From an uncultured Alphaproteobacteria bacterium (GTDB lineage Bacteria > Pseudomonadota > Alphaproteobacteria > RF32 > CAG-239), in contig CAKQUE010000001.1 of assembly GCA_934277435.1 (NCBI GenBank), positions 781 to 64,780 on the forward strand: 64,000 bases of DNA. Direction: 5' to 3'. How positions within the stretch are numbered: the stretch's first letter is position 1; each line of letters begins with the position of its first letter. This document shows positions 21,301-26,365 of this stretch, one piece after another. The notes under the pieces were generated by a model, which had not been told where the DNA came from, searched no databases, and saw only the letters and a program-made list of their open reading frames with translations. The translations under genes and the position numbers were made by a program.

Positions 21301-22562
21301 AACGGTGATACTTTTTTCTTTTCCGAGCCATCTGGAATAGTTGCATTTATTTCGGCGACACCAAATGGCTTATTGTTACCGTTTATAGCTATGGTATTTT
21401 GCACTAAACCGCCGGCAAGCATTCCATTACCGTCAAAAGCCCAATTTTTTTTCATGCGGCCAATGTTGCTACCCTTCAAAGAAATATACGCACCATTACC
21501 CATGGATTGACCAATTAAATTTCCCAATGCATTAAACACCGGTCCGGTTGGGGTTATGAGGCCTATCTGTTGATTGTCTTTATTATAAACATCAGCGCCG
21601 GCACCAACATAGCCGATAATTTCAGTTCCTTTAGCAATAACGCCTTTTGGCAACACTCTGCCGATATAGTGCCCTTCATTGTCATTGGCAGTGGCTGACA
21701 TCGGTATAGAAAAACCTATAACCTCGTTGTCACTATTGACAATATTGCCGTCAGCGCGGTAAAAACCAACTTTATCAATTCCACTTACCACCACACCGTT
21801 ATATGTGATAATTCCCATATAACGTCCGTTTAAGTCAAAAGCATAACCAGTGCGAACAACACGGCCTATCACTTTGTTTTCTGAATCATAAACATATTCA
21901 TTGGCATGCACTGAGCCAATTTCTTTACCTTCAAAATTTATAACTTTTCCAGAAGGAGCAATACTACCGATAAATTCTCCGCTCAACGAAACCACCATTT
22001 TAGAAGACATCAATCTACCGTCTAAAATATATTCATCGCCCGATTTTCGATATGCATAGCCGTTGGCCGAAACGAAGCCAATTTCTGCACCATCCAAATT
22101 TGTATAGGTTCCAGCTCCGGTTAGACGGCCGATTGTACTTCCATCTGCAGAATAAATCAGCCCTGGAAATAAAATTGAACCGATAACATTATATTGCTCA
22201 TCAACAACCAAACCGTTTGGTAAAGCACGACCTAAAGGTTTACCGGTCGAACTTCTTACAACACCGTCGCTATTGATTTTTCCTAAAGGACGGTTATCTG
22301 TGCCGATTGCCACACCTTGTGGAACAACTCCGCCTATAACTTCATTGTCCTCATTCAGAATCAAACTATCGGCGGTAATATATCCTATATTGGCTCCATC
22401 AGGACTGATAACCATACCATTTGATATAACTTGCCCAATTACTTCGCCGTTAAAATCCACGGCGGTAATTTCTGCAGCATTTACCACTTGGTTAAACGCC
22501 AAAAAAGTTCCTAATGAAAGGATTATAGTTTGCAGATATTTTACGATTCCGCTGTGTTTCAT
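18342..22562 (-). CDS. Giant CagY-like T4SS protein: signal peptide + ~1000-aa decapeptide tandem-repeat region + C-terminal VirB10/TrbI barrel domain + low-complexity Q-rich tail
   Basis: C-terminal ~250 aa (…TAVVERNVYAEEGRNIVIPAGSRVIGEISG…IDISWRRLIRPDGSQF…AGAIGYLDEQL…) matches VirB10/TrbI domain; the repeat region is made of D-x-N-G-x-I-I-G-x-V decapeptide units; start ATG overlaps stop of upstream ORF (TAATG). Confidence 0.7.
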   Translation of the reverse strand: MKHSGIVKYLQTIILSLGTFLAFNQVVNAAEITAVDFNGEVIGQVISNGMVISPDGANIGYITADSLILNEDNEVIGGVVPQGVAIGTDNRPLGKINSDGVVRSSTGKPLGRALPNGLVVDEQYNVIGSILFPGLIYSADGSTIGRLTGAGTYTNLDGAEIGFVSANGYAYRKSGDEYILDGRLMSSKMVVSLSGEFIGSIAPSGKVINFEGKEIGSVHANEYVYDSENKVIGRVVRTGYAFDLNGRYMGIITYNGVVVSGIDKVGFYRADGNIVNSDNEVIGFSIPMSATANDNEGHYIGRVLPKGVIAKGTEIIGYVGAGADVYNKDNQQIGLITPTGPVFNALGNLIGQSMGNGAYISLKGSNIGRMKKNWAFDGNGMLAGGLVQNTIAINGNNKPFGVAEINATIPDGSEKKKVSPFGYLLSAENKLDGRSRYLTPILGLEGQVYSYLTPNGTLYREMSDVKMNMNGSLTGKSGYIGSQLDVRYALSFKGQSLGRLAANNLLLDDKGEIAYKVTPGYNVVETKGNIGENIMPLRGFAGSRMVAVGTNGDLLGYAGNNGKITDLDGNIYGRALYGNFVSDNNNSVTGKLVPFVGVNNDKCVQLGILNGRGEIINNRDVAVGRLLPNGQAVSDVGSYIGYSIFESGLIDFDGNYIGVVNAGKGIDNANKNLGCVNRQGIVIDSDNKWKYGVITPAPAIDFDNNIIGQVMENGSVADNNNQILGAMQPNGNVISKSKKVIGNVMRYKVAFSNDNTFLGMVQNNGQVWNTKGENVGQINFDGSIQHKGETVGFALYDFYVYDGNFIVYGYIMKDGTVLNTSGSRIGKMDRGFVVDKTGQVVARGNRDYTVRDASNNVVGELQIDGNVLDYDNQNIGYLSDAGVIRNTSGDELAKAYTLQYYIATNNKKTDTKQDWADYKKVQIQEEGPLKNDEIQPSQQSSGGQFNRRIIGIALNPDGDILGSIYDDNKVYDDNNNQIGFRTPDGMIVDMKYNPIGVEEIKGSSAQNMFVPAGTFGSGNAYGIGNKPSSLGPGGGYGAGERYDPSKAAALANLQATRRSGMAVGSISSNVSPSTFTGYEEDGWPDVGKTVSSWRVDMSQMILEDKPIPAVLSRSVYASDGLGSGIPVTAVVERNVYAEEGRNIVIPAGSRVIGEISGENSGSSGGNSGGAVKIDISWRRLIRPDGSQFTINGSQTADAQGRAGAIGYLDEQLLKKYTAPMLITAMESATAYLMASGDGTSEGNGYSTTSSKSQAASDARQNFLDQMDDIFKEIVQKKANIQAVTYVPAGTRIIIFPKVDLWLNNPDRAKKNKSGNGDFDKSGGLTMRNPSLGSNSGSVSTNDDYDENIRPTGGNRSSSSKKNSNSGAARRQQQLRSEQQQRMQQGQGPAEIQQIETSTDDDIPSLL

Positions 22563-25500: not shown

Positions 25501-26365
25501 CATCAACATAGCCAATTACATTGCCGTTCTCATCTAAAACAAGCTTTCCGGTAGAAGCCACGCCAATAATATTACCGTCTTTATCAACAATCAAGCCATC
25601 TGCATTGACGCGACCTATTTCATTGCCACTTGTATCACGGACTATTCCGTCATCGCCAATAACACCTATAATTTTTCCGTCCGGTCCAACCGCATAACGA
25701 ACATGACCGCTACTTTCCAAATCATTTTGATTCAAGTTCGCGCCGCTGCCTACACCGCCTTCACAAAAATTGCAGTCTTCTTTGTGTATGGCATTACCAT
25801 AGACCGGAACTTCATCATGTTTTGCATTTTTATCCGAAACATTGGTTTCATGCCAAGTAATTTTAAAATTATTCTGAACATTGGCGGCTATAGTCGGCGA
25901 CCACTTCATTGTAACCGTACAGGTAATTTTACCTCTGAGTTCTTTACCATTACAATTTGTGTCAAAAGTAAAACCTTCAAAAGCAACTTCTTCCAAATCA
26001 ACAGATACAATCTTTATGGCGGCTTTGCTGTTTGTACCGATAGTCAACACGTTTGTAGCGTCATTACCCAAAACAACCTGTCCCATATTAATCGGATTTG
26101 GGGTTAAAGTAATTGGGCGCTCAATTGTTTCGGCGTCATCAAACTCTATTTCTGCCTCGTTATTGGTATTTACGTTCATTCCCAAATCTGATTCAGCATC
26201 AATTGTGTCTTCAACTTCATAATGCTGCTCTTCTTCTGGAGTTTCCGTAGTCAAAAGCATCAACCCAAATAAGAAAACAAATAAAGTAATAATTCCGACA
26301 ATCAGAATTATTCGGTTTGTTTTGCGGACATATCTATCCGAATGTGTTAATACTTCTTTGCTCAT
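22562..26365 (-). CDS. Giant repeat protein with N-terminal cytoplasmic tail + single TM anchor (VirB10 N-terminus-like topology) and >1000 aa of decapeptide tandem repeats
   Basis: N-terminus MSKEVL…RIILIVGIITLFVFLFGLMLLTT then the repeat region; translationally coupled to downstream VirB10-domain ORF. Confidence 0.65.
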   Translation of the reverse strand: MSKEVLTHSDRYVRKTNRIILIVGIITLFVFLFGLMLLTTETPEEEQHYEVEDTIDAESDLGMNVNTNNEAEIEFDDAETIERPITLTPNPINMGQVVLGNDATNVLTIGTNSKAAIKIVSVDLEEVAFEGFTFDTNCNGKELRGKITCTVTMKWSPTIAANVQNNFKITWHETNVSDKNAKHDEVPVYGNAIHKEDCNFCEGGVGSGANLNQNDLESSGHVRYAVGPDGKIIGVIGDDGIVRDTSGNEIGRVNADGLIVDKDGNIIGVASTGKLVLDENGNVIGYVDGSNVAHDVNGEVLGNMLSDGTIIDNEGYIKGKAVNSGYVYDENGNILGKVLEDGTVVDLDGNVIGRVNENGEVVDKNGSIIGRVAKSGEVALDENGNPLGVVMPNGDVVNENGDIVGHTDGDGNVYRQQKIGQKGAAAQLVYDANGNIIGYVDENGIAYDFNGNVIGHVDENGNVVDENGNIIGHVGEWRDLAYDENGKIIGYVDENGIVQNGKNTIGYIDENGNIIGDKNGTNLSDRPTIGKKGNEVQLAVDKDGNVIGYIDENGDVRDFSGNIIGRVDEDGNILDNDGNIIGRTGEKASLALDKNGAVIGYVNKKNIAYNKNGKIIGIVDANGNIRVFGMIKVGSLLDKMLLPITPDGKVLGEINNRGEIVSQNKVIGRMRPDGLATDKSGSKILARGLHAGYIASWGCRYEYKLDKDGVVRKEGNDTDLRVYADGTVWSPEGKFVGKIIKTGSVYDDECNYIGEVNADGSVRDAYNKEIGCVNPDGTVLGLDKPQVKGHLVEPRTVMSLDWQNMGTLDENGTLRQNGIDVIGCVNGHGEVFDKDMSYIGSVSNAYYAYDLTGKFLGTLDEKGNLPSIGKDGAHLFLKNLIADKNNQIIGFAAPEINILIDAKGNILGHLFPDGNVYNSEGEVVDQISGDGTSVYNGQPAKFLKTGYVVDMDGQLIGYISFDMDVVKVDGSVVGRVDANGRMFDANGRQLGGIVVQGGVRGYNGSYMGYVVASGDVVELMSDSNNQDLDGNEYHLGDITGRVVPDGHVVKDGRLLGEILPETAMIDIFGNYVGYSDAYGIVNGADNQGITALLPGGVTNNNISALPKGIVIDFGGKVIGTVLPDGRFFDLQRSASGTVMADGKVISNDGKLLGEVVNGDIVIGNDDKVAGMVGFDGKIYQNGNIVGHLLTDGFAVDNQNNVIGHVYSIGNTILSNDGDYIGRLAANGKVIESRNKEIGYMKSNGSFIDADKNVSGYLLPEVAKNRRN

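Follow-up and report, generated by a model that had tools for sequence, protein, structure and literature searches.

Is the giant VirB10 of an uncultured gut alphaproteobacterium (RF32; CAG-239) encoded as two proteins, or does a frameshift divide a single gene? The question is raised by two adjacent open reading frames (ORFs), here called A and B, which occupy the virB10 position of a chromosomal type IV secretion system (T4SS) operon on contig CAKQUE010000001.1 (GCA_934277435.1). We analysed positions 781-64,780 of this contig, a stretch of 64,000 nt that is referred to as the window and to whose numbering the coordinates of its features refer. An initial annotation, made without database searches, had described the ORF at 22562-26365 as a barrel-less repeat protein with a VirB10-like membrane anchor, translationally coupled to a downstream ORF that carries the VirB10 barrel. 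It had proposed either one CagY-like VirB10 divided in two or a frameshift, genuine or artefactual, within a single gene. We find that this ORF (A) is real and lies on the minus strand, a detail absent from that annotation. Further, we consider it probable that A and B represent a conserved two-gene form of a giant VirB10, working as its anchored and its exported half. The elements on which this reading turns are the following.

22562..26365, minus strand: ORF A, 1267 aa, ATG start; putative inner-membrane-anchored, barrel-less half of a two-gene giant VirB10
18342..22562, minus strand: ORF B, 1406 aa; putative exported half, with signal peptide, beta-flower array, VirB10/TrbI barrel and low-complexity tail
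22560..22564, minus strand: TAATG stop/start overlap; TAA of A at 22564-22562 and ATG of B at 22562-22560, with 1 nt shared
22568..22572, minus strand: GGAGG, putative Shine-Dalgarno sequence of B, formed by the two final Arg codons of A, CGG AGG, and located 5 nt before the B ATG

The junction between A and B

For comparison, nine loci were collected via homologous proteins, and a scan with a barrel alignment contributed the best 80 of 320 matching genomes, with one genome per species. All hits of this best-80 scan were of the split type. In 77 fetched loci, of which 76 are from species-representative genomes, an A-type gene ending in NRRN* immediately precedes a B-type gene. No fused gene was present among the fetched loci (the nine and the best 80 of 320), those beyond the 77 being truncated by contig ends, and none of the 77 genomes had B without A. 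All are metagenome-assembled genomes (MAGs) of uncultured Alphaproteobacteria, recovered from the guts of humans, ruminants, horses, rabbits and mice. More than 30 protein clusters, with an overall identity of 36-95%, share the conserved tail of A, ...NGSF(I/V)DxDKNVxGYxLPEVA(K/R/Q)NRRN*. In UMGS1578 (L009), an independent assembly with 90.8% DNA identity to the window over 8 kb, the junction is identical. This comparison of orthologous loci, one of the checks named in the initial annotation, favours a genuine two-protein system, the genes being separate in 77 loci and fused in none.

In the window, the junction reads ...AAT CGG AGG AAC TAATG AAA. The same TAATG overlap is found in L001, L009-L011, L014 and L017. 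The coupling noticed at first is real and belongs to a conserved arrangement. Across 79 loci, the two terminal Arg codons of A are CGG in 72 and AGG in 74, and yet no Arg codons are rarer in the A gene of the window (CGG 3/39; AGG 1/39). Since CGG AGG is kept though rare, the conserved terminal Arg pair appears to double as the Shine-Dalgarno sequence of B. The start codon of B is ATG, GTG or TTG and is positioned -1 to +8 nt relative to the stop codon of A. With the ribosome-binding site of B inside the last codons of A and its start this close to A's stop, the arrangement indicates that translation of the two genes is coupled.

The variability of the junction bears directly on the explanations that leave a single gene. 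One of them supposes a single gene of ~2670 aa that is split by an error of sequencing or assembly or by a recent frameshift that makes it a pseudogene. The 1-nt overlap of stop and start is its sole direct support at the junction, and errors of this kind do occur in these MAGs, as in L052, where A is broken in two by an apparent frameshift. However, the same arrangement of A stop and B start recurs in 77 loci from independent studies and hosts, with all three stop codons (TAA 54, TAG 15, TGA 10; 79 loci) and in all three reading frames. The C-terminal tail of A is conserved, the junction is the same in the 90.8%-identical independent assembly, and a signal peptide with a conserved cleavage site, such as B possesses, would be pointless inside a fused protein. 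We therefore give an error next to no credence. Programmed ribosomal frameshifting or stop-codon readthrough, yielding a fused A-B product in addition to or in place of separate ones, seems hardly more credible. It would be in keeping with genes that overlap or abut and with the Shine-Dalgarno-like GGAGG just upstream of the stop, as such elements can stimulate frameshifting in some known cases. Nevertheless, relative to A, the frame of B is 0 in 18, +1 in 23 and +2 in 36 of the 77 loci, and with a spacing of -1 to +8 nt no single recoding mechanism could be conserved. The junctions showed no conserved slippery sequence, and a fused product would have a hydrophobic signal peptide embedded midway in its periplasmic array. 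The variation in stop codon, start codon, spacing and frame therefore excludes both an error and a conserved recoding signal. Taken together, the loci indicate that A and B are two real genes and not one broken gene.

Architecture of the two proteins

ORF A comprises four parts, given here from the N-terminus. "Fused" refers throughout to related proteins in which repeats and barrel are encoded by one gene.

26249..26365, minus strand: A aa 1-39, basic, predicted cytoplasmic tail with the motif (T/S)HS(D/E)xY(V/I)(R/K)KTN, and single transmembrane helix; Y12, N17 and G24 are conserved in fused proteins too
25787..26113, minus strand: A aa 85-193, predicted periplasmic immunoglobulin (Ig)-like beta-sandwich, ASH/PapD-like and choice-of-anchor-D-like; pLDDT (predicted local distance difference test) of 80-90 in AlphaFold2 (AF2)
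22631..25699, minus strand: A aa 223-1245, beta-flower-type beta-hairpin array with a 17-aa/51-nt period; Bflower_2 2.7e-65, Bflower 5e-30, DUF3659
22565..22630, minus strand: A aa 1246-1267, conserved C-terminal tail ...FIDxDKNVSGYLLPEVAKNRRN; conservation 0.84

The N-terminus of A consists of MSKEVLTHSDRYVRKTNR followed by IILIVGIITLFVFLFGLMLL and then an acidic stretch. Because basic residues precede the helix and acidic residues come after it, the predicted topology is N-in. The transmembrane segment is the sole hydrophobic segment in A, and AF2 places a helix over residues 8-39. Hydrophobicity, charge pattern and model thus agree with the short cytoplasmic tail and single transmembrane helix read from the sequence at the outset, and the likeness to a VirB10 N-terminus extends to homology of tail and helix with the N-terminal module of fused VirB10s. 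The description of A as barrel-less holds as well, as no TrbI/VirB10 domain was found in it with Pfam or NCBIfam; its orthologues (36-95% identity) all lack TrbI.

Within the Ig-like domain lie the conserved cysteines C138 and C149, while C198 and C201, also conserved, are just C-terminal to it, outside aa 85-193. Matches of the domain to Pfam ASH (17.6 bits; cutoff 27) and to NCBIfam choice_anch_D (25.5 bits; cutoff 45) both remain below cutoff. A Foldseek search with its model retrieved the ASH/PapD-like domains of CEP192, HYDIN and OCRL (E ~1e-5, probability 1.0, TM score 0.5-0.6 on the target). The modelled domain thus shows a resemblance at the level of the fold to ASH and choice-of-anchor-D domains, not an established family membership. 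Among orthologues of A, an indel hot spot is situated at aa ~450-550 (window ~24716-25015, minus strand), where alignment occupancy is 0.58. The tail of A forms a short terminal helix in AF2 (residues 291-298 of a 300-aa model). In locus L052 (3089-6774), A is present as two ORFs of 506 and 773 aa, probably through an assembly error or as a pseudogene.

ORF B differs from A in both ends, as follows.

22476..22562, minus strand: B aa 1-29, predicted Sec signal peptide with signal peptidase I site VNA/AE
19548..22475, minus strand: B aa 30-~1005, array of beta-flower hairpins; the initial ~140 aa match the barrel in conservation and are, of all modules, the closest paralogue to the last one of A
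18657..19262, minus strand: B aa 1101-1302, TrbI/VirB10 C-terminal barrel domain (PF03743, 4.8e-30)
18342..18656, minus strand: B aa 1303-1406, low-complexity S/N/Q-rich tail (~100 aa) ending in DDIPSLL

The start of B, MKHSGIVKYLQTIILSLGTFLAFNQVVNA, was missed as a feature by the initial annotation; cleavage is predicted before AEIT, giving a mature N-terminus that begins AEITAVDFNGEVIGQ. Across 79 orthologues of B, position -1 of the signal peptidase site is Ala in 72 and position -3 is Ala or Val in 75. In the same set the signal-peptide sequence itself is variable, whereas the mature N-terminus (A/Q)EITA(I/V)DFNG is conserved. No transmembrane anchor was found in B. That this downstream ORF supplies the VirB10 barrel, as first proposed, is borne out by the TrbI domain, which matches PF03743 with 105.3 bits (cutoff 35) over profile positions 2-188 of 188. 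In the PDB, the barrel matches ComB10 (E = 1e-16 to 4e-17), TrwE, CagY, X. citri VirB10 and TraF, and in HMMER alignments B residues ~1210-1275 align with the helix-loop-helix antenna region of TraF, TrwE and ComB10. The NCBIfam equivalogs T4SS_VirB10 (95.7 bits; cutoff 220) and ComB10 (102.8 bits; cutoff 300) do not reach their cutoffs. By these matches, B is related to VirB10 through domain-level homology and not as an orthologue. B-type proteins and fused giant VirB10s alike end in a conserved [VI]PxL[FL].

The repeats of both proteins had been taken for decapeptides. Instead, the unit is one beta-hairpin of 10 + 7 residues with a period of 17 aa or 51 nt, and AF2 models of the repeats show strands of 3-7 residues in hairpins. 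Pfam Bflower_2 matches A with 217.7 bits and B with 175.6 bits (cutoff 38), and Bflower matches them with 104.7 and 41.6 bits (cutoff 25). The motif [DNEQ]xxG occurs 81 times in A versus 40 +/- 5 times in shuffled sequences, and 51 times in B versus 31 +/- 4. In the beta-flower fold (PF21784/PF21785, clan CL0395), this motif marks the tips of hairpins made of short antiparallel strands (Durairaj et al. 2023, PMC10584680), and the hairpins close into 4-, 5- or 6-fold shallow barrels, the "flowers". The beta-flowers described are small single domains of ~96-116 aa, sometimes lipoproteins and associated with the bacterial envelope; the fold has no solved structure, and many of its members enclose a C-terminal helix (PMC10584680). 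A and B resemble this family in exceeding its gathering thresholds and in carrying [DNEQ]xxG at hairpin tips. They differ from it in that dozens of hairpins make up arrays of more than 1000 aa fused to T4SS parts. Our literature search found nothing relevant that links beta-flower, DUF3659 or RF32 to VirB10 or T4SS. At the DNA level, recombinogenic repeats like those of CagY were sought in A and B, and only diverged copies and no long exact ones were found; as the copies are merely 60-73% identical, switching by recombination in the style of CagY is not indicated. Similarity between A and B amounts to ~24% and is at the level of the repeats, with no collinear duplicated block.

Fused relatives and the joint between the halves

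Support for a divided VirB10 comes from relatives in which it is not divided. The search with A also gave many proteins in which beta-flower repeats and TrbI occur together, with lengths of ~2150-2215 aa. Such single-gene giant VirB10s are found in related alphaproteobacterial MAGs (~1930-2360 aa; e.g. P0041, P0074, P0084). The slot of A and B, marked X in the order VirB8 - small ORF/lipoprotein - (VirB8) - VirB9 - X - VirB11, is filled in three cases by divergent fused proteins (2202, 2213 and 1930 aa), whose barrels are 48-53% identical to that of B; barrel identities between B and fused proteins span 48-59%. The N-termini of fused proteins, SSSEQY(V/I)KKSNRxLL followed by a transmembrane helix, resemble that of A. 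When the first ~215 aa of A-type and fused types are aligned, they form one homologous module with cytoplasmic motif, transmembrane helix, Ig-like domain and four Cys. Invariant columns in this alignment are Y12, G24, P89, G100, GF131-132, C138, C149, W155, Q164, W171 and C201, and N17, P157 and C198 are also conserved. In a profile search of 1.84 billion representative proteins, the whole module was found solely in A-type and fused-type proteins or their contig-end fragments, while the Ig domain alone resembles repeats of many giant multi-Ig proteins. Short proteins with the N-terminal module (449-574 aa) were considered as ordinary-sized VirB10s and rejected, being contig-end fragments. Fused genes in the same slot, together with the homologous N-terminal module and barrel, support the division of one VirB10 in two suggested at first: by this homology, A corresponds to the N-terminal and B to the C-terminal portion of a giant VirB10 whose counterparts in relatives are single chains.

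How might such halves work together? Our tentative reading, to which we give somewhat less than an even chance, is a long-maintained split of VirB10, in which the covalent link between anchor and barrel, believed to convey ATP-dependent conformational signals through the periplasm, has been replaced by a non-covalent joint of two giant beta-flower arrays, the end of A docking on the start of B. A would sit N-in in the inner membrane, with ~1200 aa including its repeat array in the periplasm. B would be exported by Sec with cleavage of its signal peptide, and its barrel would enter the outer-membrane core complex together with VirB9 and the VirB7-like lipoprotein. Where an ordinary VirB10 connects the two membranes by a single chain, the arrays of A and B would do so non-covalently, the likeliest contact being that of A's last module and tail helix with B's first module. 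For a hidden Markov model (HMM) of the last 160 aa of A, the best match lies in mature B, at residues 4-138, and reciprocally, with 76-97 bits versus 42-72 for the next-best modules. Conservation is 0.68-0.84 at the end of A and 0.73 over the first 200 aa of B, which equals the level of the barrel, and these are the best conserved parts of the arrays. It is from this conservation, from the fact that the genes were never found apart and from their coupled expression that the interface is proposed.

Several observations weigh against this reading or against parts of it. We infer signal-peptide cleavage and topology from sequence rules, and physical coupling of A and B from conservation and paralogy. 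The modules on both sides of the junction are complete, which leaves no obvious half-domain in need of complementation; a break cutting through one beta-flower, with halves that complement each other, was considered and is unsupported, A's last and B's first modules each being whole. Moreover, A and B sum to 2528-3183 aa, 350-1000 aa above the fused proteins, and in BLASTP A 1-1259 aligns to fused 1-1350 and B 34-1387 to fused 830-2139, so that the two ranges overlap. Given the excess in summed length and the overlapping alignments, a clean single-point break is not demonstrated. In the barrel tree, the fused group is monophyletic in 56/100 neighbour-joining (NJ) replicates, and the root does not give the direction of change. 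As to how complete the machine is, neither VirB6/TrbL nor a VirD4 coupling protein was recognised across the 64-kb window, in which equivalents of VirB2, B3, B4, B7, B8, B9, B10 and B11 are present. Mapping of the break point on the fused protein, by BLASTP and by HMMs of the end of A and the start of B, was ambiguous because modules of ~140 aa recur along the array. Orthologues of A range from 1037 to 1814 aa and those of B mostly from 1362 to 1440 aa; their lengths show a weak negative correlation (r = -0.34, not phylogeny-corrected), which is compatible with a constrained total length and is not strong evidence for it.

The direction of the change is a question of its own. In the barrel tree, with ComB10, CagY, TrwE and X. 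citri VirB10 from the PDB as outgroups, the B clade is monophyletic in 100/100 NJ bootstraps, which implies that one event separates the split clade from the fused lineages. Parsimony favours fission of a fused ancestor, though without proving it, since every characterised VirB10 homologue is a single chain that has its transmembrane segment at the N-terminus and its barrel at the C-terminus (PMC9371333), in agreement with PDB lengths. A junction between complete paralogous modules could reflect a break followed by growth of the repeats or duplication with complementary loss.

Two rival explanations accept both genes and account for them differently. Were the two-gene form ancestral in the lineage, the ~2200-aa proteins would have arisen through fusion of an A-like and a B-like gene. 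Gene fusion is generally commoner than fission, the barrel tree with its distant PDB outgroups does not nest the split clade within the fused group, and the fused proteins do come out as monophyletic in 56/100 replicates. This history nonetheless runs counter to the single-chain state of all characterised homologues (PMC9371333) and to the occurrence of the fused state in at least three divergent lineages. Moreover, no relic of a junction was found inside fused proteins, be it the EVAKNRRN tail of A, the EITAIDF start of mature B or an internal signal peptide. We therefore place fusion on the unlikely side. Alternatively, A could be an accessory paralogue, derived from a duplicated fused gene by loss of the barrel: B alone would then be a VirB10 without inner-membrane anchor, and A a separate inner-membrane or periplasmic scaffold, comparable to DotF beside DotG. 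Duplication with complementary loss fits the alignment of A and B to overlapping portions of fused proteins and their greater summed length, both proteins are built of complete modules, and Legionella core complexes assemble without DotG (PMC9371333), so that continuity of VirB10 is not always essential. On the other hand, 0/77 genomes had B but no A and a conserved embedded Shine-Dalgarno sequence couples the two, which argues for a fixed stoichiometric partnership. The cytoplasmic motif and transmembrane helix of fused VirB10s are retained in A, the modules next to the junction are the best conserved repeat parts, and the ~24% similarity of A and B is confined to the repeat level. We regard an accessory role of A as unlikely.

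Comparison with known systems places the proposed split in context. The pair resembles canonical VirB10/TrbI proteins (A. tumefaciens VirB10, pKM101 TraF, R388 TrwE, H. pylori ComB10) in the TrbI domain of B, in its position between virB9 and virB11, and in A's tail with single transmembrane helix. In contrast to these, anchor and barrel are on two polypeptides, with a stop codon between them in 77 loci; B has a predicted cleavable signal peptide in place of an anchor, and ~2000 aa of beta-flower hairpins, together with the Ig-like domain, stand in place of the Pro-rich linker. The fused giant VirB10s have the operon slot, the N-terminal module of A, the type of repeat, the barrel of B and a C-terminal [VI]PxLF end in common with the pair, but are one polypeptide and 350-1000 aa shorter than A and B together. 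CagY of the H. pylori Cag T4SS (1927 aa) is likewise a giant repeat-rich VirB10 of an effector-type T4SS, with a barrel distantly homologous to that of B (E ~1e-4), and orthologues of A, too, vary in length within the repeat region. Yet CagY is a single chain, the barrel of B is the sole part that matches it, and the units of its middle repeat are near-identical and recombining, unlike the repeats of A and B. The label CagY-like, which the initial annotation had used, is thus apt as an analogy for a giant repeat-rich VirB10; it does not extend to the repeats, which are beta-flower hairpins unrelated to those of CagY.

For an anchor protein and a barrel protein that act as a pair, DotG and DotF may offer a functional analogy; the dotF gene is adjacent to dotG. 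In Legionella Dot/Icm, DotG is a VirB10 homologue of increased size that contains an internal repeat region, and DotF, a periplasmic protein with an inner-membrane anchor, joins the core complex and the periplasmic ring (PMC9371333). DotG retains its own N-terminal transmembrane segment, unlike B, and DotF is not derived from a VirB10 N-terminus, while A is homologous to the N-terminal module of fused VirB10s. No pentapeptide-repeat family was among the Pfam matches of A or B, unlike the central region of DotG.

Among T4SS subunits, VirB10 alone is believed to reach from the inner to the outer membrane in a single chain, relaying energy-dependent gating signals (PMC9371333). The split clade beside its fused sister lineages is a natural experiment on the need for this continuity. 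If the non-covalent joint is true, chain continuity would be dispensable for VirB10 function, and an unusually large periplasmic or surface structure would be built from a fold that has no solved structure. The two-gene and fused VirB10s also put the recently named beta-flower fold, for the first time, in a clear functional setting, that of a spacer or scaffold in a secretion machine. The expanded VirB-type system is carried by abundant uncultured Alphaproteobacteria of gut and rumen.

The operon and its surroundings

The A-B pair is part of a chromosomal VirB-type T4SS operon on the minus strand, in the slot virB9-A-B-virB11, in the window and in all related loci. In order, the operon contains three VirB2-like pilins, a VirB3-like ORF, VirB4, five signal-peptide ORFs, VirB8, the VirB7-like lipoprotein, a second VirB8, VirB9-SPOR, A, B and VirB11. 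Housekeeping genes (yidC, engB, hflKC, degP, uvrA, lpt genes) stand on both flanks.

26375..28105, minus strand: VirB9/CagX homologue with C-terminal SPOR domain (Pfam); upstream neighbour of A, the slot being filled likewise in all related loci
17358..18332, minus strand: VirB11 ATPase (Pfam and NCBIfam); downstream neighbour of B
28889-29080, minus strand: 63-aa ORF with lipoprotein signal (MSKKILLIMGLLLILSAC...), between two VirB8 paralogues
29999-39164, minus strand: five consecutive ORFs between VirB4 and VirB8, 261/460/566/411/~1320 aa, with an N-terminal signal peptide only
39233-41662, minus strand: VirB4
41659-43538, minus strand: three tandem VirB2-like pilin paralogues (128, 120 and 117 aa), 142-aa secreted ORF and 96-aa VirB3-like ORF, upstream of VirB4

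The SPOR domain of the VirB9/CagX homologue, a peptidoglycan-binding domain at aa 496-574, is atypical for VirB9. Judging from its lipoprotein signal and position, the 63-aa ORF is probably VirB7; a gene of 60-72 aa is found at the same place in L001, L003, L005-L008, L089 and L090. Each of the VirB2-like pilin paralogues has a signal peptide and two hydrophobic segments.

The five ORFs at 29999-39164 gave no Pfam or NCBIfam match. One of them, of 1372 aa as called, probably starts at an internal Met (aa 51), which removes an overlap of 134 nt with the upstream ORF. A VirB6-like identity of the large ORFs between VirB4 and VirB8, as in the rvh systems of Rickettsiales, was considered and rejected, as they have signal peptides only, no polytopic transmembrane segments and no family matches; with this the system is not called rvh-like.

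Elsewhere in the window, a type IVb-pilus-like cluster (43849-55466) is oriented divergently from the T4SS operon and encodes TcpQ, a secretin, a PilO-type accessory protein, a T2SSE ATPase and a T2SSF platform protein. An additional T2SSE-family ATPase, at 54501-55466, is on the strand opposite to this cluster. Two apparent domain fusions concern housekeeping genes, both on the minus strand: LptC with LptA/LptD_N in one ORF of 352 aa (4261-5319), and a histidine phosphatase with QueH in one ORF of 368 aa (60109-61215).

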